Below the pieces are notes generated by a model. That model saw only the letters and a list, made by a program, of their open reading frames with translations. It did not search any database and was not told where the DNA came from. A program made the translations under genes and the position numbers. Below, piece by piece: positions 8,658-47,516 of a stretch of 47,516 nt of DNA (position 1 is its first letter; the number at the start of each line of letters is the position of its first letter). The stretch is from Tricharina praecox. Its lineage: Eukaryota. The stretch lies in contig NW_026250432.1 in NCBI RefSeq assembly GCF_024521635.1, positions 434,001-481,516 of the forward strand, read 5' to 3'.

Positions 8658-10224
8658 ATGCCTCCGATGACGAAAACACCTTTCTCCTCCAAGAATCCGG
8701 CCACTCTGGCTAAGAGCTTCTCGACTGGCAGCCCTCACCCACAAGGCATCATCGGCGAGGTTGTATGTCCGCTTTTCAACAGCGATGGGTCGCAATGCCG
8801 CAAGAAGTGTGTTGGTGTGAGTTGCCGACCTCTCCTCGCCCCCCGAAAGTCGGGCTTGTATGCACGCTGGCGCGCACCGAGACTGACCGCGATCGTCGCT
8901 CTTAGAACTTTGCATACCGCTCCATCTGCGAACACATCCGCCGCGCGCACCCCGACAACTGGATCCCGAAGCTTCCGGCGAGCCCAGAGACATTCGCGAA
9001 GATGGTCGGAATCGTACCGAGACAGAACACCAACGGAATGCAGATCGCCAATGGCATGATGCACCACATTCCCGTCCAGCAGATGCGGAAACCCACCGTT
9101 GCTCGGAAACCGTCAAAACGTAAGTTCGCCATAACAATACACAACACCCCGTAACCGTGCTCTCCCTCATTGTCCTTCCCCCACACTTGCCTGCCCCTTA
9201 TTTCCCGATGGCGCACAAGGGCCAAGGTCGAACCGACCGGAAAGAAAGAAAGGTCTCCGAACACTATCAATCCTTCAGCTGCTGCGCGCATGTGTCCGTA
9301 CCCAGCATTGTTGGAGAATAGATTGTAAGGAGAACCTTTGTGCGAGTACGCGTCAGTGTGTGTGCGCGCGAGTGGTGCCTGGGCCTCAGTTCGTGAGAAC
9401 AAAACTCTCCGTTCCGAGCCAATTCTCCAAACCGCTCTTGCTCTCGCTAGTGTGCCCAACCATGATTGAATCACCGAGCTAACACACCTTGTTCAGTCTC
9501 GAAGTCAATGGATGATGATCACTACCACGACCTCTCCCCTCCATCCTCGGCCACCGACTCGGAAGCCCCCAACCTCCCATCACTCTCCGTCGCTGCTGCC
9601 TTCGCCGCACGATTCCCGGTCTACGACTACCCCTCTCACACCGAGGACGATGACGACATGGACGGCGAGCACGAGCTCGACGAGGAGATGCTCCGGGGCC
9701 ATACTGAGACCGAGACCGAAGACGAGGAGTACTCCAACCCATACTCGCACTTCCCCCCCTACGCACACATCCACCACCACCACCACGCCCTCCCTCCATC
9801 ACGCCCACGCAGTCAGAAGCCGAAATCCCAGAAGCGAAAGCGCCAGAGCACACTCGACTCGACCACCTCGACGTCTTCCTTCCCCAGCCGCTGGGACGAG
9901 CTGATCGAGGCCGCCACCAACCGCGCCGTCGTCGAGATGCCCCTCTCCCCACCACAGACCGCGCAAACACTGCCGAGCATCTGCCCAAATACCCCATCGG
10001 GTATGTCGGAAGCTAGCTCCGAAGGCAACCAGTGTGGACCCAAGGTAGAGTGCACCGAGTGCCGATCACTTGTGGGTCTTAACCGAGCTTTCGTATGCAC
10101 CGAGTGCGTCTCCGGATTCTGCGAGCCATGTGCCATTGACAACGCAAAGCGTGGCGTTTGCAGCGAGTGCAGAGTCATCGGCGCACGATGGAGGCCTTTG
10201 AAGATTAATGTTCTCTCGGGGTGA
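8658..10224 (+). CDS. Putative transcriptional regulator, RfeD-like fungal family (N-terminal C2H2-like Zn motif, C-terminal Cys-rich Zn/RING-like domain); exons 8658-8816, 8906-9119, 9497-10224; 366 aa
   Basis: Canonical introns GTGAGT..CTGAC..TAG and GTAAGT..CTAAC..CAG. The spliced product has CPLFNSDGSQCRKKCVG-NFAYRSICEHIRRAHPDNWIPKLPAS, RWDELIEAA and a C-terminal CTEC..CTECVSGFCEPC..CSECRVIGARWRPL. These match the conserved blocks I recall for Aspergillus RfeD-like proteins. Confidence 0.85.
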
Positions 10225-19744: not shown

Positions 19745-19966
19745 GAGTCATTGGAGTGTTAATTCGGATGTTTAGCGGTTTCTTAGCAGAGTGGGAGGAG
19801 ACGAGCAGTGGAGCAGTTGAGTCATTGGAGTGTTAATTTGGATGTTGAGCGGTTTCTTAGCAGAGTGGGGGGAGACGAGCAGTGGAGCAGTTGAGTCATT
19901 GGAGTGTTAAATCGGATGTTTATATAGCGGTTTCTTAGCTCAGTGGGAGGAGACGAGCAGTGGAGC
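19745..19966. repeat. 74-bp tandem repeat, 3 near-identical copies
   Basis: GAGTCATTGGAGTGTTAA...GGAGACGAGCAGTGGAGC starts at 19745, 19819 and 19893. Confidence 0.95.
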
Positions 19967-22159: not shown

Positions 22160-23676
22160 TTACTCCCGAATCAACCAATACGTCAGCCCCAGAAGCGCAC
22201 CGAGACAGATGGTAGTCAGGATGCCGGCGCCGGCCCTGTCGCCAGTGGTGGTGGGACCGGTCTGCTTAAGCTCGTCCGCACTCAAACTCGACGTTCCACT
22301 ACCCTTGGAGGCATCACCCTTACTCGTTCCCGTCTTCTCGGTGTTGGGGGTTTTCACCGACGGGATGAGCAGCGACTGGAACACCTCCATGGCGCTCATG
22401 TGTTCGCCGACACCACCCTTGGCGATACCGTACGGGCTGTCGTCGTACGTCTGCTTGATCCACGACAAACCGCAGGTGTTGCCGCCGTTGTCGGCACCGT
22501 TGCAGGACTTGGCCGCAGCTACGGCGGACGCGCGCAGTCGCGTCATGATGAAGTCACGGCTGAACGGGCAGTACTGGTAGGTCTGGGCGAAGAAGCGAGA
22601 GAGGTACGCCTTGAAGGAACGCTGATCGGTGTTGCACGTGGGAGTGCGAGTGTACGGTGGGGGAGACTCGCAGGCGGACTCGCGCATGATGTTGGGAGTG
22701 CCGTCGTTGCGGTTGAAGAAGGGCTCGTCGGTGGCGTTGAGCAACTTGCCCGTCTCCGTTTCCCAGGTACTGGCCATGTCGGTGTTGGCAACGATGGTGT
22801 TGTAGTAGTCGTACATGGCGGCGGCCCCGCTGAGGTAGATACCGGCGTTGTAGCTCCACTGGATCTTGGACGACACGACACACTCCGGGATATGGCTACC
22901 GTCGTACACCTTGTAATCCGAGCTCACGAGGCCGTTGCTCAAACTCCACGCCCAGACCTTCTCGGCCCAGTCAATGTACGTGGTGTTGCCCGTGTACCGA
23001 CCCAAGCGCGCACCCATGTTGAAGAGCAACCCGTTGCTGACCGAGTTCTTGTAGTCGTAACCCTTGTTGCTCGAAAACACCTGCCAGCGCAGTCCACCAT
23101 CGCACGCCGCTTCGTCCCACCGCCCAACCTGACGGTTGAAGACGGCCTGCGCCAGCGCCAACCATTGCGGCTGGTCTGAGGGAGGATCGGGGAATCCGCG
23201 CTCGGCAGCGGCGAGGGCAGCGATGGCCCAGAAGGCCTGATCGTCGTTACCCAGGGCCAGCGTCTGGTTTGGGGGTTGATAGTCCTCGTCGGGACCAACT
23301 TGGAACAGCAGCGCTTCCGACACGATGTCGTTGTAGGTGTCGTCACCCGTGAAGGCCCAGTAGTCGATCCAGCCACCCATGGCGGCACCGGCTTCCCACC
23401 AATAGTACCCTTGATCGTTCTTTCCGTCGGCGGTCTGGATGAGACCGAACTCGCCCGGAATGAACCATGACTCCGTGTTCGGGTAGAGGGCGCGAAGCTT
23501 TCCGGCCGCGATGCCAGCCGCGCTCTTGATAGATTCTGAGCGAGTTAGCAGTGACGCGGACATGAGGGAGGGGGAAATGGCGAGGGACGGTACATACCGT
23601 TGTCGTCGGGGTTGAGGTCGATTGCCCACGCGCAGCCCGCGAGAGTCAACAGCAGAGGTAGTAACGACAGTTTCAT
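22160..23676 (-). CDS. GH76 mannan endo-1,6-alpha-mannosidase, DCW1/DFG5 family, GPI-anchored; exons 23676-23598, 23535-22160; 484 aa
   Basis: Signal peptide MKLSLLPLLLTLAGCAWA; intron GTATGT..CTAAC..CAG; motifs YYWWEAGA, GNDDQAFW (catalytic DD), GGLRWQ, YKNSVSNG, WSYNAG, DQRSFK; C-terminal TTGDRAGAGILT plus hydrophobic tail. Confidence 0.95.
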
Positions 23677-24756
23677 TGTGGAGGAGGTGGTAGTCGAGGT
23701 TGACGGCGATAGTGCGCAGGCCTCGAGCGAAAGGGAGACGAAATAACGTTGGAAGTGGGCCAAGAAACGAGCGTCGAGGACGCGCGGCGGCGAAGACGGC
23801 GGAGCTCACTAGGAGACTCGGCAGCGGACGGCGGCGGAACCGAAAAGGGGGGCGGGCCGGATGTTGCGGAAGCGTCGATTTTTGGCGGCCGGGGGATGTT
23901 CAATATGTACCGTAGCGGTGAGGCGGGGAGAGACAGGGGAGGAGCGAGGGCGGGGAGCGGGGAGGGCGGGGGACGGGATAGAAGAAGAAAGGGAGAGGTT
24001 GATGGTGGATGCTGGGCGGTGACGGGGAGGGGGCGAGCGAGCGAGCGTGAGCGCTGACAGTTCCTTGGTTGTGTCGATGAAGCGCAACGGCAGCCATCCC
24101 TGTTCTAGTAGCGTGGCCGGAAGGGTGAGTTTCAAGATCGATTCATTTTGTCGGCAACCCGCGAAAGACGCCACAAGACTTCGTGGCTACCAGCACCGGA
24201 TACTCAAAAGAAATGTACTGGTATCTGATTCTACATGCGCTCACTGTCAAGAAGCGACTCTTAGTCTCGTCTTTTTTACTCGCTCGGAGAGTTAACAATT
24301 CATCTCCTTTTTGCTTGTTCTCGTTCCTGTGCTAAAAATAGCATAAATTCCTCGCCAAGGGTTTTCTGAGGCGCTGGCTGTTTCGGGCTTCGTTCGGAGT
24401 TGAGCCACAGCATCGTGGCTTGCTAGGTCTCGGTGCGCCACAAAATGAAAGCCACACATATGGGTCGGGGCAGAGAACCGGGGAATCCCGACGATTTGTC
24501 CTGAGCCAACAACCGGACATCGATCAGCAGCTTTTTGATCGCTTCTTCCTCATGAATTTAAGCTTAATTACGTAGCCTGCCAAGCTGCCATTGAAAGCCA
24601 AAAGTTGCACGGCGTTGTTCACATCGTAGGTAGATAAATAGAGTACCTATGCCTTCGTTGGAGACAACTCCTTGACTACACTCCATCCATACATACACCC
24701 AAACCACGTCCTATGATATCCCCACTCAAACCACGTCCTATGATATCCCCCGCCAC

Positions 24757-26015
24757 CTACAGCCTGCATTCCGGCCGCCCCGCCGCCCCCACCATCGTAC
24801 ATTGTTCGCCCTGCGGCTCACCACGCTCCTCATCGAACGGCCGCCGCATTTCACACGTTGGATGCTCTGGATTATCGCTGCAGAAGTGGTCGTCGTCCTG
24901 GCCCGGATTCTTTGCGAACAGTCAGCAAAGCAATCTGGAGATTCTGATCCCGAAGGGCAGAAGGGTGCAGAGGGGGGCGCAGAACGGGTCCCCGCACCGC
25001 ATGCTCGTACTCCAGCGTCTTCATGAGCTTATACACCGTTGCCGCCAGGACCGCCCCCAGCGCCGGGCCCAGCCAGTAGATCCAGTGTTCGTGCGGAAAG
25101 CTGCGGTTGACGACGCACGGCCCAAAGCTCCGGGTGGGGTTCGCGCTGCCGCCCGTGAAATGCACGCCGACCAACTCGATCACGAAAAACACCAGGCCTA
25201 TCCCGATCGGCGCAAGGAACGTGGCCCGGTGCTTCTCCGCCGCAAGCATGAACACCGTGAACACCAGCTCGGCGGTCAGGAACATCTCGATGAACAGCCC
25301 CTGGGCCACGCTCGTCCCGCCGCCCAGCTTCGTGCCCACGTCTAGCGGCGTGGGGAACAATGCCGACACTATGGCCGCGGCGACGATGCCGCCTAGCATC
25401 TGCGCGACGAAGATGGTCGCCGCTTTGGTCGTGGAGAGGTTGCCGACAAGCCAGAAGGCGAAGGTTACCGCGGGGTTGAAGAGACCGCCCGACACCCGGA
25501 AGAAGATCCATACGTTGACGGCGAGGGAGAATCCGAACGAGAGCGCGATGTAGAGGAGGACGACGGGGTCGAAGGGCGGCGTGGCGATTGGGTCGGTGTT
25601 CGGGGGGATGTGCGCCACCATCGTCCCCCCGAAGGCGAATATTAGGTACAGCGTCGTTCGGGAGAGCGAGGAATGTCAGCATTGGAAGCGAAGGATGAGA
25701 TTAGAGGAAAAAAGAAACCCGATGAATTCGCCGAGCTGGGAGAGGTTAGCAATCTACTCTACTCTGTTCGGCGGAAACAACGGTGGAGGGTGGCTAGGCA
25801 TTACCCAGGCGACGAAGACTGATAATGAGGTCAGAAATAGCAAAGGCGGGAGCGGGAAATAAGGAAGACCAACGATTCTTGGTGGGTTTATTCATCCATC
25901 CTATCATGAGGCACCTCGGGTCCGCAGATGGCCGTAGCCACCAGTGCCGTTCACGCCTAGGACCAGTACTGTTGCCATTGGTCGGTGGTAGGATGTTGCG
26001 CGCAGTTCCAGCCAT
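24757..26015 (-). CDS. Aquaporin (MIP family, orthodox fungal type); predicted exons 26015-25874, 25818-25805, 25735-25719, 25658-24998, 24909-24757; 328 aa if intron 3 is spliced; possibly a defective allele
   Basis: Spliced product KNLFVAWLGEFIGTTLYLIFAFGG, SGGLFNPAVT, FIEMFLTAELVF, GGSANPTRSFGP, HWIYWLGP, LEYEHANPGQD. Intron 3 ends in CG rather than AG. Confidence 0.9.
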
Positions 26016-26495: not shown

Positions 26496-27877
26496 CTATG
26501 CCATGGGCTTTCGCGCGACAGCAAATGTTCTACACCGACCAGATCAGAGAGTGCAAACGAGGCGGCTCGGATTGATTGCACTTACATATTGCCGTAAGCG
26601 TGCACTTTCTTGCTGTTGACCTCAACGTTGCATTGCCCGAACAGGGCATACACCTCTTCTGACGGCATATTGAGCACGCGGGTGAGCAGAGCAAGGCCAT
26701 ACGCCGAGAAGCCGGACTGAGTCGAGAGAGCGAACCAGGCGCCCATCTCCTTAAGCTTGCGATCGGAGGGCCAGGTGCCGAGCGGCAGCTTCATCTCCGT
26801 CTCCTTGTAGCTGCCGAAGTTCGCGGTCGTGACGAGATCGCGTATTGACGGGTTCATTAGCTGTAATGACCGCCCCGCCTTGGCGGCGGCTTGGTTCACC
26901 AGCTCGTAGTATCGCCATATCGCCGATTGCGGCGTGTACGTGTCGTCGTCGGCTTGGAGCTTGCCCGCGGCCGCTTCGACTATCTCGATGAAACCGCCGG
27001 GCTTGAGGCACCTGTGCACATACCAATCCGGGGTCAGTTCGGGGTTTTTTTTCTTAATCTTTATCTTGACTTTTTTTATACAAGGGCCGCAAGGCGCCCA
27101 TATAGAAGCGAGGGACAAGACAAACCTGTAGCATTGGCTCAGCAAACGAGGCCAGTCCTTGATGGAGCCCAGCATGCTGCGGATGTGGATGAACTCGAAG
27201 GAATCGTCGGAAAACATCCAATCGCACTCGACGTCGTCCACGACGAACTGGACGTTGGGCGGAACCCAGCTCGGCTGGATGGGTGATAGGTCCACTCCGA
27301 TCACTTGCGCCGCAGGAAAGCTGTCCCCCATATCTGTGATGGGTCATGGTTAGCCTGAGTGTCTGACAAAGGGTTTTGATCCGTCGTCATCATAGTAGCC
27401 CTGAAGAGCTCGAATAGAAAAGAAAAATAGAAGAAAAGAGCTTACCGATAGCCCAAATGCCAGTTCCAGTGCCAATGTCGAGTATCCGCGAGGCGTCTTT
27501 CGGTATCGGCGCCAGATGCAGTCTTCCCCTGAGCATCATGCTGTAGATGTGGTGCATCATGTCGAGTCTGTCCTGCTCCGTCTCGTCGTTTGGAAGAGCA
27601 TACTGGCCTGCGCGGAATGCGTGGTAGCGTCGGCCATTCTCATACACGTAGCTGTGGGGGCACCGAAACGTCGTCAGTCAGAGCTCAATAATAACAGCAA
27701 GTTCGGACGGCGATAAGTAGGTATCAAGGGTAGTACATACTCCAAGACGGACGAAGAAAGTGAGGCCGTCGACGATTCCGATCCGCTGGAATAGAGCGAG
27801 TCCTCGAAAGCGATAGATTCCGAGTGGTTATGCGAGTCGGCTGGGTCGGAATAGGCATCTGGCTGAAGGGAGGCCAT
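26496..27877 (-). CDS. LaeA-like class I SAM-dependent methyltransferase; exons 27877-27741, 27651-27446, 27333-27126, 27011-26586, 26529-26496; 336 aa
   Basis: YENGRRYH, YALPNDETEQDRLD, ILDIGTGTGIWA, GVDLSPIQPSWVPPN, LKPGGFIE, PLGTWP, ARKP; four GT-AG introns keep the frame. Confidence 0.93.
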
Positions 27878-34379: not shown

Positions 34380-35391
34380 CTATCTCTGATATCTCTGACG
34401 GTGTGTTGGCGCTGGCTCTTGAGGAGCCTCAACAGCTTTCGTAGGCCCGCGGCGGGAGTGCTGATGTTCCGAGTGCTGCCGGTGGTTTGAATACCGTACT
34501 ACGTCATCATCATGGGCCGTGTTCCTTCGAGAGAGATATACGTATGTTGGCCCATGTTGAACCGAAATATCCGCTTTATTCCTGGCGTGCGATCGCCTCG
34601 ATGCAGAAGACACCCGATGATGATGACCGCCTGAGTGATAGGTTACTGGAGCATAAATCTCACTAGCAACCGGCCCGTGCTGTGTGCTGACAACTTCCCC
34701 TTCCATGAAGCCGGAAGACATCCGACGCTGAAATCCGTTGTGAACCTGGGCTTTTCGACCGTAAATCTCCTTAGCAACGGGCCCGTGCTGCGTGTAGATT
34801 CGGGGATTGGAAGATTCTCTACAGCCGCCCCTGTGGAGATCCCGCTCGTCTTCGTGGTATGCAGCTTGGGAATGTCTGTCTTCATCCGAATACACTGAGG
34901 AATATTCATCCGAATACACTGAGGAATATTCATCCGAATACACTGAGGAATATTCATCCGAATACACTGAGGAATATTCATCCGAATACACTGAGGAATA
35001 TTCATCCGAATATTCATGAGAATAAGATTCCTCATCCGAAAGATTAACCGGACTGTCCACGGCTTCACCCTCAAACCCGAGCCGCTCTCGACCATACTCG
35101 GTTGATTCGTCGAGGGGCACGGAATCTCCAGGTTGAGGATGATGGGGAATCGGCCGTGGTCCGTTCCTGATTTCAATTAGCCACACTTCATTCCGAGGTG
35201 CTTCGAGTCAACATACTTCGCCGAACCTATGCGTCTTAACGGGTGCTGCCTGGTCGGCACCTCGAGTTCTCCCTCTCGGTCATGCTCCACGGTATACACC
35301 TACTCCAACATGACTTTAGTGATTAAATCTCAGAGAGTTAAAACAGACGACTTACTGCATCGTAAATCTCGACATATTCGACCTTCTGCAT
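34380..35391 (-). CDS. Hypothetical repeat-containing protein; at least 3 exons (about 35391-35356, 35299-35217, 35166-34380); true start uncertain
   Basis: Long open exon with in-frame 24-bp repeats (YSSVYSDE) and three QHGP pseudo-repeats. Upstream introns GTATGT..CTAAT..CAG (35216-35167) and GTAAGT..TAG (35355-35300) keep the frame. Confidence 0.55.
34881..35013. repeat. 24-bp coding minisatellite, 5 perfect copies plus a partial copy (TTCATCCGAATACACTGAGGAATA)
   Basis: Copies start at 34881, 34905, 34929, 34953 and 34977. Confidence 0.97.
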
Positions 35392-35981: not shown

Positions 35982-38318
35982 ATGGCCGACGCGCAGCATC
36001 TCAGTCCGCCGACGGAACTACATGGCCGTACTCCTACTCGTACAGCCAGCAATCGCGGGCGTCCATTGTCCAGAGCCTCGCGGCAGCACAGTCCGTCTGG
36101 CACGGAGCTCGATGGTCATAAACTTGCATCTAAACACCAAAAGCGGTCGCAGTCCGGTTCGGATTCGGGTTCGGCGGTGTTGTGTTCCAGGCATCACGCT
36201 CGCGACCGATCTCAGGATTCGGGATTGCAGAACTTTCCAGCTCTGGCAGGATTAGACGCAGGTGGATGGCATATTCTCAGGAGCGGAACACAGATGCCCG
36301 AATTGTAGGAATCATGTTCACTTGGTCGACACCACCGCGAGCTAATGAGTCAGTTCGAAGGGATGATGTAGAACAGATACGAGAAGCGTTACTAAGGCGA
36401 GGAGGGAAGAACCTGTGGCAGATTTTCGGAGACAGGAACTATGTCGTGGTCATGTGTACCCATCCAGACGGTACAATCGAAGCGTCGAACGTTTCCGAGA
36501 GCCAGGAACTTTTGAAACGTCTCGAAGCGGTAAGAACACTGAAATCATGGATGGTTCGGTGAAGACTTACCGATTATAGGAAGCACCGAAGTCCCAACAA
36601 TTGTACGGATATCCATCCCTTCTACATTCGCGAGTTCATCATGGTGAAAATCTAATATGGTGATTTCGGTGGTCCGCCTATATTCGCGCTAAACAATGTT
36701 TTGGCAGTTATATCACGATGAACACGAGGAACGAAAAAAAAGGAACTTCAAATATCGGTAAATATCTTCGAGCAACTCGCACTCCACTATGATTTCCCCG
36801 TGGCATTCATCTAGACATTGTTTGACTACGATCGGCAACCTCGTCACTACGCATTTGGAAGTAGGGTGCAGTGCTATAGACCGGGGCCCAAGATACAAGG
36901 TATCCTATTCGTTGGAATAAAAGAAAGTACATATTATCGTGCTGACGAGCTATAGACTTTTGGTATACACTACCGGTTCGTCTGGCAATGAATTGCTCAG
37001 ATCCCCAGGGATCACATCGAGATGCTACGGCAGGGACATACCAACACAATGCTTCCAATCTCCTCCACCTTCACAACCAAAGGATTGACATCCGACACCA
37101 CGACCTTGCTGTACTCTGTCGCCACGACCTAGAGAACAAAAAGACGACTGTCATCTGCGTCAACTTTCATTCCCGCGTTCCACAGACCATCAAAGACCTC
37201 GGGGACCGAGTTTTTCGTGCATTGAATAGTGGCGGCACGGCGATGAACGACCGAAACCCCCTTTGGGTGAACCTTGTTTATATTGGCCAAGTGCTGTACG
37301 GTTGGAAGGTGGCATTCGAATATTTTGCGGCCGAATTGAACATCCATGTATGTTGATCATTGGATACTAGTGGAAGGAGAAAATGATGGCGATGCTGACC
37401 GGTTGTCGACGGCTAGGAGACAGAAATCGAAAAGAAAATGACAACCCAAGCGTAAGCTATACAGAAGTCATCGGCGACCGAAAGAACACGAGAAACCGAA
37501 AATGCGGAGAAAAACCGGATGCTCAAGACGAACCGAGCGCTTCATGCTATGGCCGCCCACTGCCTCCGATACAAAACCGAGGTCTATACTGTTACTACGG
37601 TGGTGAAAGCGTTGATGGAGCACCACGAGGAGATATCCGGAGAAATGAAGATACACGATGACGAGAGAGACAGAGTTCGTAGGGCGATGAAGCAACAGCT
37701 TGCGGAGGTTGTTGCTATCTCCAGATCGCAGGAAGAGTTGGCCAAGAAAACAAGTAACACACTGGCGTTGGTTAGTTAGCATTGTTCTGCTCAGCCGCGA
37801 CTTTCTGCGGATCGAATGCTGATTATCCGATCAAACAGTTGTTTCATTCTGTTCAAGCAGATTACGACCAGCAGCAGGTCGCCAATGGTGTCGAACTTCA
37901 AAAGATTTCTCTGGCCAATCAAGTCGAGGTCCAGCAAACTAGAAAGGACAGCTTTGCGATGAAGACCATCGCCATTATGACCGTGTTTTTTCTACCCGGA
38001 ACTAGCATTGCGGTAATCTTCACTACCTCTTGTTGCACTCAGACTGATGGATAGGAATTTCAAAGGCAATACTGGCTCTACCGTATTTCGAGGGCACCGC
38101 CGCCCACAGGACTTTATGGATATGGGCCGTGCTGGCAATAGCGCTGACTGGGATAGTGCTTGGACTGTTTCGGTTTCTATCAAGGCGAAAGAATAAACAT
38201 GCATCCTCCGATCTGGAGAATGCACGAAGTGGGGGGTAACGAGGAAGGCGGAGACGGCGGAGACGATGAAGAAGGCAGAGAAGATAGTAGGCGAAGAACA
38301 GGACTCAGCGATGGTTAA
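35982..38318 (+). pseudogene. Fungal CorA-like (Mg2+ transporter-like C-terminal 2-TM) protein gene, multi-exon, apparently disrupted
   Basis: Spliced C-terminus RKDSFAMKTIAIMTVFFLPGTSIA-AILALPYF..LWIWAVLAIALT is typical of fungal CorA-like proteins; internal blocks DFWYTLPVRL and NRALHAMAAH. In-frame TAG at 36812-36814, TAA at 37453-37455, and an apparent +1 frameshift in the A8 run at 36734-36741. Confidence 0.75.
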
Positions 38319-40095
38319 GAGTGGGAAGAAGGACCGGTGATGGTGCAGGGCAATCATCAATGTATATACCGAGAATATTCAGGTTGAAACTACACCAGCC
38401 CGTTTTCCAGAGAGGCCAGCTTTTTGAACAAGAGACCGGCCCCATGGTAAAGCGGTAGGTTATTTAATTAAACCGACCTCCGGGAATGTGGTTTGGTGAA
38501 TTCAACGTTTATGCCCACGGCTCGGCTGTTCTGCTCGCAAATCTTTAGAAATACTAGTCCATCGGTAACTAAAGTTAAGGTAATGTTCCTTCGTATCCGT
38601 TTCTCACCTATCTTGAACATACCAACTCTAATCAACCCACAATATCCCATGCTATTCCGGCAGATACCATATTGCGCCCACCGTCCTTCGCCGCTCTCAA
38701 GTTGCGGCGTTGAAGTCCCTCCTGGCAGTGAAGCTCCTACCGCTATTCTATCCTCCTGTTTCCTTTCGCCTGTTATCCTTCTCTATCTCTCGCCATCGCC
38801 GCATGTAGTTACCCTAATCGCGAGCCTTGTCGAGAGCATACTTCACAGCATGACTGCGAGCTTGACCGAAAGCTTAGTCGAGAGCGTAGTAAAGAGCATG
38901 CTAGAAAACATGACCGAGAAGATACTGGAAAGCATAAAGGTGACTCGTATGCCAGCGCGCATGACCGAGAGTGTAATGGAGGACCTTCATGTGAGAATAT
39001 TGATGTACGGCGGAAGCGTACCGGAAAGATGTGGGGTGAAAAACGGTTCTTTCTAGCTGCCGCGGGAGAAGCTCCTCTTGCAGCTGTCAATACAAATCTT
39101 CCTCCCTGCCTACCCCACTGGTAGGTCACGAATACAGCCTCGTACATACTCAGGCTGCCCGTTCGGTGCAAGGTAGTTACTTGTGTCTCAAACGAGCGTT
39201 CAAAGCAGTCGCGTATGTAATCATCCTGATACTGTACGTGCATACGTCAGAGCTTGCTATGAGCGAAATCACGACTCTTCACCAGACTCCTTCCCCTCCT
39301 TGTCTTCGCTTTGCATCCCCTATCTGGCCACCTTTTCCCTCACTCTGTTTCTTTGATTTCGATCGCTTCCGTCACCGATAACGCAATAATGAGGGGACGC
39401 AGGAGCGGCAAGGGCAGCACGGGTAGACGGTTGTGAACCGCTGCATTCCCAAGAGGTTCTTTTCCGATTGTGCGTTTACTTCCCAGGTGCCATTACTGAG
39501 ATGCGCCGGTTCCAGCTTCGTCGGCTTCTCTACACCCGAAACCGCTGCAGCACTCAATACGCCCGGGTATACACCATCGCACCCATCGGTCCTCCTATGC
39601 CACTACGTGGCCGTCTCACCCGCGGTAACACCCAAGCGCTCACCTCTCCGTGCAGAACGAACTCCCTCTTTCCACATCCAGCCGCTTTCCTGATTGATAG
39701 GGAGAGTCCACCTGCAGCAGACTCCCGGTCATACGATTCCCGCGTTATGCGACGGAAGCCTCTAACGCGAAAAACGAATTCTCCGCTCCCTGTCAACCGA
39801 TGCTGCAAAGTATATACCGGAACATCTACCGGCAGGCGGCTCAGAAATCGGTGGTGTACGCAACTTACATGTTTCGGTGTAGTTTAGGCGCGAGTGCGGC
39901 ACAGGTTTCTCGAACCGCAGGCTAATCAATCGATAAATCTATCGCGGAAAAAGATGATGAGCGCTTCGAATTCTTCCGTGCGGAACATGCTATAAGTAGT
40001 TCGGCCGTTCTGGGTTTCCCAAATTAAAACTTCGACACGACCAACTTCTTGTGGATCATAACGTGACACCGCCCGATCTCGATATAAACGGAACG

Positions 40096-41474
40096 ATGGC
40101 AGCCGCAGCCGCAATGGATCACGTAAGTGCAATCTGAGTGCCTTTGAATTGACCGCGAGCTGACATAGGAGGCGTCGGGTAGTTGGAAGTCAGCACCGAC
40201 GACGACGATTCGTCGGATTACTCCAGCAGCTTCACGCAGAGCTCGACGCATAGCATTACAAGCTCGATTGTGGACTACGTTTACGAGAATGGTAAGCCAC
40301 ATCGCTCGCACCCATCCCGGAGGAGCGATGCTGACCAAGATAGGAAGACGGTATCATCGCTACCAGGAAGGAAAATATATGCTTCCGAATGATGAGGTTT
40401 GTTATCCTATTTCCCAATCTACGTCGAATAGTTGTGCTCACACACCGAGGGATAGGCGGAACAAGACAGGTTAGTAGCCCTACCGGCACGAGCACTCGAA
40501 GGCCGATGATTGAGATCCGGAACAGACTCGACTTGTATCATCACCATGAGTTACTCACGCTCCACGGGAACCTTTACGTTGCAATCCTTCCGGTGAAGCC
40601 GCAGCGTATCCTGGACTGTGGCACTGGAACTGGAATCTGGGCGTTGGATATTGGAGAGGTTTTTCCATCGGCGGAAGTGATCGGAGTAGATTTGAGCCCC
40701 ATTCAGCCAGAATGGTATGCCAACACCTGAATACGAAGAATTGGTGGCGTAGCTGACGTAACGTGTGCAGGGTGGTGCCTAATGTCCGTTTCGAAGTCGA
40801 CGATCTGGAGATGGACTGGACCTACCATCCCGATTACTTCGATTTCATCCACTCACGCAACATCGCCCAAAGCATCCAGGACTGGCCCAGATATGTGAGG
40901 CAGATGTACAAGTAAACTCCACCCTTCGCTCTCCTTCTCCATTCCACTAGCTAACGTGGTGTAGACACACGAAACCAGGCGGCTACATCGAACTCGCGGA
41001 AACATCAACCAGAATATATTCCGACGACGAGTCACTGACCGGCAGTACGTTGGGATTGTACAACGAAAAATTCAACAAGGCTCTCGAGATAGCCGGATTG
41101 ATGTTTCCAACAGGGGAGACTCTGAAGAAGTTTGCCAAGGCTGCCGGCTTTGTGGATGTTAAGGTGCACTCTATCAAGCAGCCATGGGGTTCATGGCCAA
41201 AGGATCCGGAAATAAAGAGGCGGGGCATTATCGCCGCGATGATTTGTACTACTGGTCTGGAGGTCTGTCGCCACCCCAAAATCCCGCTCTCAATACTTCC
41301 TTTGCTGACTAGTTACTACTATAGTCCTACGGAATGGCTCCTCTGACCAGATACATGGGCATGAAGCCTGAGGAGGTGTTGAAGATGTGTGTCAATTCTA
41401 TGGTGGAGGTGGACAGTCGCAAGGTGCATGCGTATACTATTCTGTATCATGTGGTGGGGAGGAAGCTGGAATAG
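40096..41474 (+). CDS. Second LaeA-like SAM-dependent methyltransferase; exons 40096-40122, 40183-40291, 40344-40396, 40456-40469, 40526-40714, 40771-40911, 40965-41262, 41325-41474; 326 aa
   Basis: YVYENGRRYH, YMLPNDEAEQDRLD, ILDCGTGTGIWA, GVDLSPIQPEWVVPNVRFEVDD, TKPGGYIE, PWGSWPKD, VVGRK. Seven GT-AG introns, including a 14-nt microexon, give an intact frame. Confidence 0.93.
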
Positions 41475-43664
41475 TGGTATCGTTTTTACTCAAGATTTTG
41501 CTGTGAGATCAAAGAATTGGATCCAATGACGAAAGCAGAACCACCATCTGAGCTGAGTGGTACCGACTGATGTGAGATCCTTTGACCATGACGATCTCTC
41601 AGAAGGAAGCATAAATGGTGTGCTTTGCTTGAGTTGGACAGGGCGGATCAAGATGTGCTCGGGAGGAGCGTGCAGTTGAAGCAGTTGAAAGAGACACCGC
41701 CGTTGAGGAAGTGTGACAGTAATTAATTTTCTACTTATGTCCACCGGCGGCTCGTGATTATTCTAACAGTATGTACCATATGATTGAGGGGATTGCCGGC
41801 ATCGAGTATGTACCTGATCATTTTCGTGATTGTTCGGATCGGGTCTCAGCTCGGCCGCACAGAAGGGATGAAAGTACCGAATCACACGGCCGTCTCGCTG
41901 CTGGCCCCTTCAGTGGCCATTCTGAACAGTTCCCCTCCATTCGGCAAGATTGGACGTAGCTAGCGCACCCAGGTGATCTCCGAACCCGCCGGACCAAATC
42001 AATGAATGTACAACCCATATTCCTGTTGAATGTATGCTAAGACTCCGGGATGAGGGCAGGAGAGCGGGGAAGGCGGAGTTAAGTTTGCTTACGCGGAGAG
42101 GGGAGGCGAGGATATATATCCTGGGTGAGCAGCTATAGCTAGAACTACGGGAATCACAAGCAGCAGTTCGCACTCGTATAATTGTTCACTCCCTTCCCTA
42201 GGCGAGCGCACCCCCGTGACAAGCCCTGGTGAATCTCGTCCCGACACGACGATAAATACGTGCCCGAATTGACGTTGCATAGTACATGCTCATCACGATG
42301 AACAGTCCAACATAGAAAGGATGAAACATTCGGTGCTAGATTGGGATATACCTTGGGCGTGGAGCATTGCTGCCCTCCGTGAGACGATCACAGCTGCACT
42401 GGGAGAGTCTACCCATGCTATTTCGGAGAGTAAGCCCGGAGAGTCCCGCCTACTAAGAAGTCTGGCCGGATGTACCTATGGGAGTCGACGAATCTAGTGC
42501 CGAGTCGGCGATGCATAATACCCGATGTCAGATCTAGACGTCCGATAACTCCGGAAGACACCTTCCGCACCGGAGGACAATTTGGGCACCGGGGCGGCGA
42601 TGATAGGAGCCGGACGCCAAATGGCGAACCGTCAGCTATGATCTGTATAAATATATGTAGAGGACTTACTGCTATGATGAGACGAATACGCATCAGGTTT
42701 CCCATCACTGCTACCTTTCACACCGGAAACAATGAAGAATTCAGTAGCGGCTCGATAACGGATGCAGTGCCGAACTTTCAACTTGGATACATGCCGGCAT
42801 CAAAGTTGGATACATCTTCAAAGCGGCAAGAAACATTTTGCTGGAACGCCGGCAAATGTGTTCCTTAATCCGAGGCTACCCAGAGAGCCGAGCATAGTTG
42901 CATTGCGAGACAGCCTTAAGCCCAGCGAATCTGGGATAGGCTCACTTAGGGAGGAGCCAGGTTGGAAATCAGAGAGACGTAGTCCTGGCGAGATGAGCAT
43001 TGTTGTACGACGAGAGTTCGACCGGATATTGTCGACTATACCCAGCGAATCCTTCTTATCTACATTCGAGGGGTCGGCCGGAGGTTAGAGCGTATGTCCG
43101 GCAACACGAGCGTGATTGAATTCCGAGAGCACGCCCGGCGAGTCCTACACAGCTGGAGTGCGAGAGTCCGACGAAATCTCAGAGAGTAGGTACGGGCCGT
43201 GGTCAAGGGTTTATAGCTGAATTGCGGTTGCAAACTCGCGGATCGGCGGCCTCCAGTACCACCAAAACAGCGATTTGAGCATCCCACGGCCCAGGAGCAT
43301 TCCCAACTACTGCCCCGACAGAGTACTTTGTACGACCAAGACGCTTCCTCAATGCGTGAGATTCAATCACGTGGTTCCGTGTCCATCAGTGCAAAACCCA
43401 TGGCTACAATTGGCGATTCGTCAAAGCAAGCGAGTGATACATTGTGAGCACTCACAAGCGTGACAGTTTATGATGCTAAATGTACTGGGTGATATTCCAC
43501 AATGTAGGATCTATTGCGTGGCATATTATGATGGAGTCTATCCAATTATCTCACATTACAGTTTGCTCTTTGAAATGGAACCAGCAAGGTGTGAGACTGG
43601 AACGGTTTCAGGACAGTCATGTAACACTCCAATAGACTGTAATAAAGTACACTGGGCAAGTACT

Positions 43665-44163
43665 TGTAATAGTACGGCCGGGCAGGGCTCCACATAGCGA
43701 AGACGGGTGGACACGTGGACAGGAAGCCGGGCGAGCCAGGACAAGACGAGTCGGAAAGACAAGGCAAGGCGAGATTCAGTGCAGGTGTAATGGCACGGTC
43801 GGGCAAGGCTCCAGGTAGCGAAGTCGGGCTGGGGATCGGGTTCTGGGTTCGGCAGAGGCAAGACGGGTTCAGGGGACAAGGTGAGGCAGGACTCAGTGCA
43901 GACGGCAACTGTGACACCCCGATAGCTATCGGAGGACACGACGGTCGCAAGAGATGTGATTAGATAGTTCGGGTGATTAGAATAGAGTTGCGAGCCGAAA
44001 GGATAGTTAGAAGCGATTGAGGACAAGATAGGAAGGAGGGAGCAAACGGATTCCAGAGTCTAGACAGTGATCGGAGATGCGGGAGATCGGGATAACAGTT
44101 CAGAAGACTTTGAGATCTCCGTTCATAGGGCCCCGCAGTAGGAACTCCGATCCAGGGAAAAAC
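43665..44163 (-). mobile_element. Stack of partial, related LTR ends (probable nested solo or remnant LTRs)
   Basis: Two homologous segments of about 121-124 bp each begin with TGTAAT (43665, 43786), and a third segment begins TGTGACAC (43910). Motifs such as GGACAAGG..GCAGACGGCA and GGAACTCCGAT are shared with the adjacent LTR. Confidence 0.5.
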
Positions 44164-45040
44164 TGTTATGACGAGAGAATCGAACATCGACCGATGGGGG
44201 CAGACAACTTCGAGCGAAGAACTCTGCCGGCGCATGAGGGAGACAATTGCTCGGAAACCCCGATCTATCTTGGGCGCGTGGTGTTTACCACCTGCCTAGT
44301 CGAGAAGACTATCCGAAGAGAGCTGACGACGACTCGAGGCTAGGCCGCGGAACTCCGATGCAAAGGAAGCAACGGAGCTACGTTAGGCCGCACTCAAGAG
44401 GAATCACGTGCTGAGGATCGGAACGACTATAAGTCGAACCGAGCAGGCAAACCGAACCAAACTACAATCATCGCACCGAACAAACCATCGAAGAAACACC
44501 CTTAAGATTATTCCGTTGTGGATTATCGAAATCCCTGACTTTTATTCTATCCTCGACTTTACTATAGACTCCGACGACACAAACCCGTCCCAGTCTCACA
44601 GCAACTGAGAACAGAGGCAGGGACAAGGACTACGGCGCAGACGGCAGCCGAGGCAAGGACAGAGGTAACAGTGATTGAATTAACAAGTTGTTGCGTGAAG
44701 AACTAAATACAGAGGGGCAACGGCCCGTTTATATAGAAAATCCTCCACTTCTTCCCGCAACCTGACAATGACCGTGGGCATGTGCCAGACCCTGAGAAAT
44801 CCACCTTGCCAGTACCCCACTTCCGTGACTCATACCCTGCGCAGCCGCACTACCCCTGCTTCCTGCACACAGCCCCAATCTACTGCGGCTCATCGCTGCG
44901 CTATCCCTGCTCCCTGCACACAGCCCCAAATCCTCTGCGACTCATCCTTGCACTGCCTGTGCACTGCCTCTGCACTGCCCCCCAACTCTCCCGATCCTTG
45001 TGCCGACCCTCCCTTCGTCATTCCATCGCGAGCCGTGACA
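44164..45040 (-). repeat. 3' LTR (about 877 bp; TGTCACGG...TCATAACA on the minus strand), preceded by PPT (AGGAGGGA, 45053-45046)
   Basis: TGTCACGG starts 5 nt after the purine tract. TATATAAA at about 44735-44728, AATAAA at about 44546-44541, and a 51-bp duplicated U3 block at 44847-44946. The left boundary is inferred from TGTTATGA at 44164 and cannot be confirmed without the other LTR. Confidence 0.7.
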
Positions 45041-47373
45041 GTAGTCCCTCCTAAGGCTCGAGTTCCCACGAGAGCAAGTTCGACTGGTCCAGGCTGCATG
45101 GGGTATCGTCGATGGAAGTCGTCCACAGCTTGTACCTCGGTAAGGTTCTCCTCTGGTTCCCATGTTGGTGCCGCGTAGCCTCTCCATTTTACCAGGTACT
45201 GGAGTTTGCCCCTGAGGTTCCGGCTGTCGAGGACCTCTTCAACCTCCCATTCTTCTTGGTCGTCCACGATTACCGGAAGTGGTGGCGGTGGAATTTGTCC
45301 AGGGAAGGGATCGTCAGCGGAGGCATGAAGGAGGGATACAGGAAATGTTCGCTGCTTCTGAACGGTGTCCGGGATGTCCAATTCGTAGGCGTGGGTTCCG
45401 ATGGTCCGAATCACACGGTAGGGACCATGGTGTTTGTTTTCCAGCTTGCGACTGGGTCTCTCGGTGCGCCAGTTACGACCATCCACCCATACCATGTCGC
45501 CTGGTTGGAAGGCTGGCGCAGGTGTTCGGTGTCGGTCGGAGCCGTCCTGTTGCCGTGCCTGGGCATACCGCATTTGGCTGCGGGCGACGTCGTGGATTTG
45601 ATGCAACCGTTCCGCTGCACTCTGAGCTTGATGTTCCTCCTTGGTGTCGACACGGATATCCAGCTCAAAGTCACACCGTGGGTGGTATCCTAGGTTAGCG
45701 AAGAATGGGGACAGGGTAGTCGTGTCGGAGACCTGGTTGTTGCCAGCGAATTCGGCCAAGAAGAGGTAGTCGACCCAGTCATCCTGGAGGTAGCTGACGT
45801 ACGCGCGGAGGTGCTGTTCCATGACGGCGTTCATCCGTTCAGTTTGGCCGTCGGTCTGGGGGTGGAAGGCAGTTGACAGGCGTGGCTCGATCTTGAGGCA
45901 TGAGCATAGGTGTTTCCAGAATCTCGAGGCAAACTGGGGACCCCTGTCCGAGACGATGGTTTCTGGCAACCCGTGGTACCTGAAGATCCGGTCGCAGAAC
46001 AGCTCGGCCAGTCCTTCCGAGGTGATGGTCTTGGTGCATGGTAGGAGATGGCGTTGCTTGGTCAGTCGGTCAACAAAAACACAGATGGCGTCAAACCCCT
46101 TTGAGGCCAGTAAGCCAGTGACAAAGTCGACTGAGATGTGTTGCCATGGCTTCTCGGGTACTGGGAGGGGGCGCAGGACACCATAGGGTGCGTGCCGGGT
46201 GGCCTTGGTTCGTCGGCAGGTGTGGCAGTTTCGGACAAACTGGTCAACGTCCTTTCGCATCTGTGGCCAGTAGTACCTTCGAGCAAGTAGTTCCAGGGTT
46301 TTTGCGCGCCCTGGGTGCCCTATGGTCGGTGGGCCGTGATGGTCCTGGATCAGTCGTAGTCGGAGTCGGTCGTACTCTGGAACATAGAGGCAGTCTCGGT
46401 AGATCAGTCGCCCGTTGACTTCGCGGCATTCGGCCAAGGAGATCTCCTTCGAGTGGCGTGTACCATTTCGGAGTAGCTCGAGGATTCGATTTGGGACGGG
46501 GTCTATGTCGTACCCTTCTGTTATCAGTGACGTGAGGAGGGGACGGTCTTGTTCAGGTGTGTTGGTTGCTGCCAACCGGAGTTCTTCCGGTAGGTTGTCC
46601 GGTTTCAGGACTGCCTGCTGGTTGGCGAGCAGTCTTTCATCCCCTTCTTTAGGGAGGTCTCCTGACCTCCTGGTCAGTGCATCCGGTTTTCCTCCCGCTT
46701 TGCCTGGTCGGTAGACAATCTTGAAATGGAAACGGGAAAGGAACTCTGACCATCGCGCTTGTCGTCGGTTGAGTAGTTTCGTTGTCATGAAATACTCCAG
46801 ATTCTTGTGGTCGCTTAGGACTTGGATGGGGTGAGGAGCGCCCTCCAGATGTGGTCTCCACTCCTCAAAGGCGCGGATGATTGCAAGGAGTTCTTTGTCA
46901 TAGATCTCGTAGTTGCATTCTGCCGGGGAGTGTTTCTTGGAATAGAATGCCACTGGGTGCAGAATTCCCTCGTCGTCGTACTGAGATAGGACTCCGGCAG
47001 AGACGTAGTCGGAGGCGTCAGTTTCCACTACTATCTGCCGATCGTAGTCGAAGTGCCGGAGGATCGGGGCCGAGGTGAAAGCTGTTTTTAGTTCGTCGAA
47101 TGCTTTCTGCTGTTCTGGTCCCCACACGAAGGGAACATACTTTCCATCCTCCTTCTTGGTCAATGCTGTCAGTGGGGATACCACCTTGGAATAGTCTTGG
47201 ATGAATCGCCGGTAGAAGTTCGCAAATCCCAGAAAGCATTGCACATCGGTGACGGTACTCGGCTCCTCCCATTCCAGTATGCAGGAGACTTTCGCTGTGT
47301 CCATCTTGATCCCGTTTGTTGTAATGATCAGTCCCAAATACTTGACTTCCGTCTGGTAAAAAAAATGACATTT
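44890..47373 (-). CDS. pol: Truncated Pol polyprotein (RT thumb, RNase H, integrase, chromodomain)
   Basis: KC..YQTEVKYLGLII, FLGFANFYRRFI, VETDASD, YEIYDKELLAI, SDHKNL, HHCC zinc motif (HH..GHPG..CHTC), VDFVTGL, VSDRGPQF, HPQTDGQTER, GPY, chromodomain EWEVEEVL..YLVKWRGY..TWEPEENL. Confidence 0.97.
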   Translation of the reverse strand, partial: KCHFFYQTEVKYLGLIITTNGIKMDTAKVSCILEWEEPSTVTDVQCFLGFANFYRRFIQDYSKVVSPLTALTKKEDGKYVPFVWGPEQQKAFDELKTAFTSAPILRHFDYDRQIVVETDASDYVSAGVLSQYDDEGILHPVAFYSKKHSPAECNYEIYDKELLAIIRAFEEWRPHLEGAPHPIQVLSDHKNLEYFMTTKLLNRRQARWSEFLSRFHFKIVYRPGKAGGKPDALTRRSGDLPKEGDERLLANQQAVLKPDNLPEELRLAATNTPEQDRPLLTSLITEGYDIDPVPNRILELLRNGTRHSKEISLAECREVNGRLIYRDCLYVPEYDRLRLRLIQDHHGPPTIGHPGRAKTLELLARRYYWPQMRKDVDQFVRNCHTCRRTKATRHAPYGVLRPLPVPEKPWQHISVDFVTGLLASKGFDAICVFVDRLTKQRHLLPCTKTITSEGLAELFCDRIFRYHGLPETIVSDRGPQFASRFWKHLCSCLKIEPRLSTAFHPQTDGQTERMNAVMEQHLRAYVSYLQDDWVDYLFLAEFAGNNQVSDTTTLSPFFANLGYHPRCDFELDIRVDTKEEHQAQSAAERLHQIHDVARSQMRYAQARQQDGSDRHRTPAPAFQPGDMVWVDGRNWRTERPSRKLENKHHGPYRVIRTIGTHAYELDIPDTVQKQRTFPVSLLHASADDPFPGQIPPPPLPVIVDDQEEWEVEEVLDSRNLRGKLQYLVKWRGYAAPTWEPEENLTEVQAVDDFHRRYPMQPGPVELALVGTRALGGTTVTARDGMTKGGSAQGSGELGGSAEAVHRQCKDESQRIWGCVQGAGIAQR

Positions 47374-47516
47374 TTAGGGTTAGGGTTAGGGTTAGGGTTA
47401 GGGTTAGGGTTAGGGTTAGGGTTAGGGTTAGGGTTAGGGTTAGGGTTAGGGTTAGGGTTAGGGTTAGGGTTAGGGTTAGGGTTAGGGTTAGGGTTAGGGT
47501 TAGGGTTAGGGTTAGG
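47374..47516 (+). repeat. Telomere, (TTAGGG)n, about 23.8 perfect copies to the end of the window
   Basis: Perfect G-rich-strand hexamer array running 5'->3' toward the terminus. Confidence 0.99.

Follow-up and report, generated by a model that had tools for sequence, protein, structure and literature searches.

Telomere arrays cap truncated LTR retroelements in the Tricharina praecox assembly, with one junction inside a Ty3/Gypsy pol gene

How does a telomere come to stand on the middle of a retrotransposon gene? The question arises at the tip of contig C29 in the Tricharina praecox assembly (38.4 Mb, 104 contigs). The final 47,516 nucleotides of this contig are the stretch that we refer to as the window. 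At its right edge a perfect (TTAGGG)23.8 array (47374..47516, + strand, 100% matches) runs to the last base of the 481,516-bp contig with its G-strand outward. On its inner side it abuts the 5′-truncated pol gene of a Ty3/Gypsy element with zero spacer and zero degenerate repeat, just as a first-pass annotation of the letters alone had described. The element-telomere junction is real in the assembly, and it is this one assembly on which it rests.

The truncated element (44890..47373, − strand) belongs to a family that we call A. It keeps an open frame of 827 amino acids, beginning KCHFFYQTEVKYLG, which covers the end of the reverse transcriptase (RT), RNase H, integrase, an SH3 domain and a chromodomain (Chromo, 46.2 bits against a cut-off of 25.1). 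One full-length sister served as a ruler (approximately 6.2 kb, 560-bp LTRs, gag of 401 aa and pol of 1195 aa); it supplies gag and RVT_1 in addition to the window's domains, and its domain scan gave no protease family match. By this measure the break falls at about nucleotide 3310, where the Pfam RVT_1 region approaches its C-terminal end, and some 3.3 kb of the element is missing from the C29 end. Its 3′ LTR (43786..45040, − strand; about 560 bp, TG...CA) adjoins a purine-rich tract read by eye (45041-45052) and is interrupted by a solo LTR (43910..44600) that comes from another chromodomain Gypsy family, B, and has the 5-bp target duplication GCAAC on both sides. Element A was itself inserted into an older A-like LTR fragment (43665..43785, 81% alike over 43 nt) whose other half is absent from the window; none of 62 LTR right ends in the fetched loci, which are part of the genome, supplied the distal half of the locus as an LTR with a matching target duplication. 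The terminal stack at C29 measures 3.7 kb. Among seven full-length spans the 5-bp target duplication is exact in three, has one mismatch in one and is lacking in three. Judged by its domain order, TG...CA LTRs and 5-bp target duplication, the element is predicted to be a chromovirus of the Ty3/Gypsy group.

Between 45352 and 47298 the window copy has 13 scattered private substitutions. In an alignment of 27 rows, which represent about 24 copies once duplicates are discounted, the closest sister differs from it by 1.07%. This speaks for an older insertion that was broken where it stood, and against a fresh copy or a chimera. The substitutions are of mixed types, and RIP was rejected as their source. 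Certain sisters on different contigs are just 0-0.05% apart, so family A has spread recently; and since indels are rare among the sisters (10 gap positions in the 27 rows), the assembly appears generally accurate.

A search with the last 574 element bases returned at least 41 matches, and in all of the 19 other copies that were fetched the sequence runs on beyond the break into further RT; the array therefore replaces element sequence. Element and telomere have TT in common (47374..47375, + strand), where the sisters go on CGGGTTTGAG: T47375, within the first TTAGGG, is the final shared base, after which the window reads A and the sisters C. The end has the form of a de novo telomere, with perfect repeats joined straight to DNA that continues in intact copies and, in TT, an in-register overlap within the range of 1-4 nt. 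These observations support healing of the C29 end, presumably by telomerase, on a truncated Gypsy element, and one healed end alone is ordinary, textbook biology.

From the window alone it had been proposed that the lost codons read CCN GAA and formed part of a near-telomeric seed on which telomerase primed. Indeed, the sisters encode KPEKC, with TTTTTCGGGTTTGAG on the + strand in 18/19, and the predicted seed TTTTTCGGG is present at the break site in 18 of the 19 copies. The priming fared otherwise. Use of the seed's GGG would have retained the C where the window has A, so the overlap is only TT; telomerase did not extend the GGG directly, since it is lost and TT alone is shared, as at the other ends. 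Similarly, the codon-by-codon continuity of the frame up to the telomere is borne out in part: the 827-aa frame is open, and at 47358..47365 (+ strand), 10-17 nt from the junction, a private run of eight A (A8) stands where 19/19 sisters have GGAAA. This change of two substitutions and three extra bases gives KCHFFYQ in the window against KCHFHQ, or a point variant of it, in the sisters. Template switching during repair and a consensus error near the contig end are both possible origins of A8.

In the assembly 12 telomere arrays were found, every one of them at a right contig end, and a census of the assembly returned no CCCTAA arrays at left contig ends. All 12 abut LTR retroelement fragments whose sisters continue, in three families, both orientations and at 12 different break points. 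Arrays stand on internal sequence of family A at C17, C29, C33 and C94, on an A-type LTR at C14 (a 56-bp fragment only) and C72, on family B at C6, C38 and C39, and on family C at C8, C28 and C99, the last by way of a 33-bp pol fragment beyond a solo LTR. C6 and C99 are small unanchored contigs, and the anchored ends number ten. For comparison, 7 of 22 non-telomeric contig starts begin in families A, B or C, in a hand-picked set of which three were picked owing to nearby element matches. The first-pass annotation had read C29 as a terminal deletion healed within a Gypsy element and had raised the possibility that other ends terminate in the same one. Healing on a truncated element stands, but not as a single unusual event, and all 12 ends do stop in LTR retroelements, but in three families rather than in one element. 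The confinement of arrays to right ends, together with the nearly always rightward orientation of the flank element S (see below), is probably a convention of the assembler or of curation.

Read by eye, element and telomere overlap by 2, 2, 1, 2, 2, 3, 2, 1, 3, 0, 1 and 2 nt, that is by 1-3 nt at 11/12 ends. If the ends had been joined bluntly in random register, a sum of 21 nt would be improbable (p=0.0004), whereas it is compatible with priming in the best register at arbitrary breaks (p=0.20). Healing by telomerase thus fits the set, and long seeds are unneeded. The arrays are 119-157 bp long, the terminal stacks at the ten anchored ends measure approximately 0.06 to 23 kb, and 10-nt telomere words inside the stacks number 0 in 144,375 bases of terminal sequence. 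A TERT RNA-binding domain, without stops and over its cut-off, is present in the genome. The idea that healing is easy because Pif1 has been lost is unsupported, with PIF1 matches over the cut-off at three loci.

Several ends have features of their own. For example, at C94 (L045:9780-9800) there is no clean overlap, and the sisters have a 10/12 telomere-like site about 14 nt further on; a small deletion with seed use and a substitution with blunt addition are alternative accounts of it. At C14 (L038:9756-9775) a variant unit, TTATGGG, follows two normal array units, and degenerate internal repeats lie 2-3 kb inward. Just inside the stacks of C17 and C94 (L039, L045), 946 bp are 98% identical, a sign of recent exchange between the two ends, and at C99 just 33 bp separate the telomere from a solo LTR (L046:3731-4453) whose 5-bp target duplication is perfect.

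An absence of subtelomeric sequence had also been noted from the window. This is correct at the junction itself and fails further inward, where a diverged non-coding element, S (43215..43544, + strand), lies just inside the retroelement stack and recurs, 69-87% alike, at other loci, including other ends. Its six frames held nothing recognisable by eye, and Rfam gave 0 matches (E<=0.1, 33 kb) for S and its neighbours. With a profile built from eight loci, which C33 and C39 from outside the training set match partly, S was found, aimed at the tip, at 7 of the 10 anchored telomeric ends (C29 and six others), and gave no match at the ends of C8, C14 and C38. It occurs as well near the right ends of C40, C46, C47, C51 and C83, all without an assembled array, and at interior sites of C28, C39 and C15. 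Since S also borders internal nests (C28, C39, C47), it is no pure subtelomere marker; it may be an old subtelomere core, a nest-founding relic or an insertion target. Its presence at C29 suggests, without proving, that this is a long-standing end. The 20 long window ORFs scanned included no match to a telomere-linked helicase, and at 12/12 ends the telomere-adjacent DNA is retroelement and not a helicase-gene (TLH) subtelomere.

Families A, B and C also make up large nests inside contigs (C28:1129.8-1190.4 kb, C39:339.7-400.1 kb, C10:~193-255.7 kb and C8:~847-875 kb), whose borders were determined and whose interiors were fetched in part; these nests are centromere candidates. On C8, C28 and C39 such a nest (~28-60 kb) is present in addition to the terminal stack. 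Elsewhere, the element matches of C61 fall into three separate clusters, and at L119 (C39:45092-48250) a 2.3-kb LTR stack by a leftward S has non-library sequence beyond it, possibly a former end that is now internal.

We consider it probable that C29 stops at a genuine chromosome end, broken within a resident retrotransposon and healed there by telomerase, and that chromosome ends in this fungus are normally of this kind. Chromodomain Gypsy elements would insert into each other near chromosome ends and so build stacks, as the nesting in the window illustrates, perhaps because insertion is targeted to heterochromatin as it is for MAGGY. Occasionally a tip would break or erode inside the stack, and the template of telomerase, the presumed enzyme, would pair with the 1-3 bases at the very tip of the raw end, the overlap that is seen, in any register that fits and add an array; at C29 the break would have fallen at TT within the RT gene. 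With the stack absorbing the loss, no fixed telomere-adjacent sequence would persist. Given that 12/12 ends stand on retroelements and that S lies at six others, C29 probably lost about 3.3 kb of element and more of the stack, retroelement DNA and not unique genes. As these data come from one assembly, repeated turnover and a buffering of subterminal loss are what we infer, not what we observe. Plain healing explains neither the A8 change nor the telomere-like lost side at C29.

Both features enter into an account in which the seed directs the healing: the telomerase template, or else another telomere, would have annealed to the 8-nt seed, the mismatched tail would have been clipped or converted, and A8 would be a scar of template switching. 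The lost side at C29 is telomere-like at 5/6 bases, the best of 11 ends (null 0.0007 per site and 0.007 for any of the 11, with C94 omitted and the length picked post hoc from three tried). On that strand the 6.2-kb element has 11 clusters in which 7 of 8 bases match; the C29 break site is one of them, and another is approximately 14 nt from the C94 break. Further, with AA in place of GG a hairpin with the T run at the junction becomes perfect, a weak one at −2.4 kcal/mol. Nine ends together have 7 private change events within 25 nt of their junctions, where the rates of the individual copies would predict 2.35 (p=0.010, post hoc; C14, C72 and C99, whose sister alignments are too brief, are omitted). 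However, the seed's GGG is gone from the C29 junction, the lost-side likeness is 0-3 of 6 at 9 of the 11 ends and 4 of 6 at one, the overlaps fit arbitrary breaks (p=0.20), and the tests were picked after the data were seen. Direction by the seed thus appears unlikely to us.

A shade less likely again is a fission of chromosomes inside internal nests, possibly at centromeres, after which both halves were healed and the ends merely look subtelomeric. The internal nests of about 28-60 kb are made of the same families, S borders at least three of them, and Cryptococcus formed de novo telomeres next to Tcn2 at broken centromeres (10.1101/809848). However, three telomeric contigs hold a separate large internal nest, and the nests of C8, C28 and C39, present besides terminal stacks, argue against centric fission as the general cause. 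Moreover, the terminal stacks are mostly small (0.06-23 kb), and the 946 bp that C17 and C94 share at 98% are expected from exchange between ends.

Assembly artefact, whether a telomere read joined to the wrong element copy or a consensus error in the last bases, strikes us as very improbable. Arrays solely at right ends, array lengths near 150 bp, the position of A8 150 nt from the contig end and the lack of a supporting contig among the metagenome contigs listed would all fit it. Against it, the 12 junctions are distinct and in register, sister indels are rare, the private substitutions reach 47298 with no switch of nearest sister, the C29 stack is merely 3.7 kb, and a wrong join would leave real element-telomere junctions anyway; A8 alone could be a sequence error. 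We give as little credence to an eroded end that invaded a family-A copy through its LTR, by break-induced replication or with captured cDNA, came to a halt in RT and received its cap there: such replication causes mutations and can lead to ectopic telomeres (PMC7736798), and near-junction changes are in excess, but no donor was found (the nearest of the 27 rows, about 24 copies where 40 or more exist, is 1.07% away, with 13 private substitutions), and on its proximal side the element begins cleanly with its LTR, within an older one.

Two soil metagenomes carry the unique flank almost unchanged (in X1 with 5 other letters and 1 gap, on six contigs, over 38000-43596). The seven listed family-A contigs with loose ends at 47357 (four in X1, two in X2, one in X5) all have the sister form, and neither A8 nor the telomere junction is in any of the metagenome contigs listed, beside which 155 further loose-end rows exist. 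Because rare variants are lost from contigs and sequence resembling human DNA is filtered out, this result is no evidence either way on the junction. Run X5, listed as DNA, includes spliced contigs over the gene at 40090-41476 and a 3565-nt family-A contig. That gene (+ strand, multi-exon) is the outermost apparent gene, with about 5.9 kb between it and the telomere, and from a motif seen by eye we take it to be methyltransferase-like. Further inward the window holds ordinary genes, namely GH76 (22160-23899), aquaporin (24872-25675), methyltransferase (26582-27343) and RING-like (9466-10224), and tandem repeats of period 74 (19745-19966, 2.9 copies) and period 24 (34881-35012, 5.5 perfect copies). 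The best named matches of the GH76 protein are in Pezizales (Trichophaea hybrida 76%, Geopyxis 73%, Ascodesmis 73%), which places the fungus in that order, and an exact look-up of two proteins found no entry in the collection.

Parts of this arrangement are known from other systems. Magnaporthe (Pyricularia oryzae) is similar in the length of its TTAGGG arrays, in terminal truncation, in in-register seeds of 1-4 nt and in telomeres on truncated retroelements. For example, seeds of 1-4 nt occur in 19/24 de novo telomeres and seeds of 1-7 nt in 17/23 truncated MoTeRs (PMC7367193), 48% of 689 junctions are strain-private (PMC8381367), and terminal truncation is frequent while a helicase subtelomere is kept at most ends (PMC1635262). 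In the reference strain, the helicase-gene subtelomere at most ends is mostly avoided by transposons, whereas all Tricharina arrays found cap LTR fragments. Likewise, its truncated elements are non-LTR MoTeRs in telomere repeats, whereas those found here are of LTR type, lie in both orientations, have many internal copies and leave no interstitial repeats. MAGGY-type chromoviruses have the same order of RT, RNase H, integrase and chromodomain, TG...CA LTRs, 5-bp duplications and nests, and the MAGGY chromodomain directs insertion to H3K9 methylation (PMC4600332, citing Gao 2008). Unlike those of MAGGY, the nests here are the physical chromosome tip. Schizosaccharomyces japonicus, with LTR elements clustered at centromeres and telomeres, similarly has LTR families at internal nests and chromosome ends, and is not known to have telomeres joined mid-element at every end (PMC4600332). 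Human neotelomeres have overlaps of 1-3 bp, breaks often in repeats and occasional extra junction changes (PMC4427916). They are rare and pathological, whereas here such junctions would be the standing state of all ends. HeT-A and TART of Drosophila and TRAS and SART of the silkworm are telomere-specific retroelements. As with these and MoTeR, the elements studied here form terminal DNA and may buffer loss; but the former are non-LTR, polarised and telomere-targeted, whereas the latter have LTRs, lie both ways, occur internally too and are without telomere remnants. Among papers surveyed by title or opening, mostly outside the subscription literature, none reported all ends capping truncated LTR elements, and a study of Neurospora chromosome ends may describe a similar arrangement. 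Unlike a single healed end, the genome-wide architecture of 12/12 arrays on broken LTR elements appears to be a new form of a known phenomenon.

A tentative extension, which we hold to be possible and less than even in its chances, is a two-part cycle in which active chromodomain LTR elements would lengthen the stack outside a conserved boundary element and frequent telomerase-healed breaks would shorten it, preferably at telomere-like sites within the elements, where healing would be mutagenic. If true, such a cycle would be a counterpart of retrotransposon telomeres that is based on LTR elements and retains telomerase; no end would have a fixed telomere-adjacent sequence, and those internal nests that have the boundary element would once have been ends. 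Every telomere found in this assembly reads as a separate healing event on multicopy DNA, and thus as a natural experiment: since sister copies show exactly what was lost, one can read from sequence how a fungal telomerase primes, which seeds it uses and what mutations arise at its junctions. For this lineage, matching chromosome ends between strains by telomere-adjacent sequence would be unusable, and whether LTR stacks serve as a sacrificial buffer for subterminal genes becomes testable.
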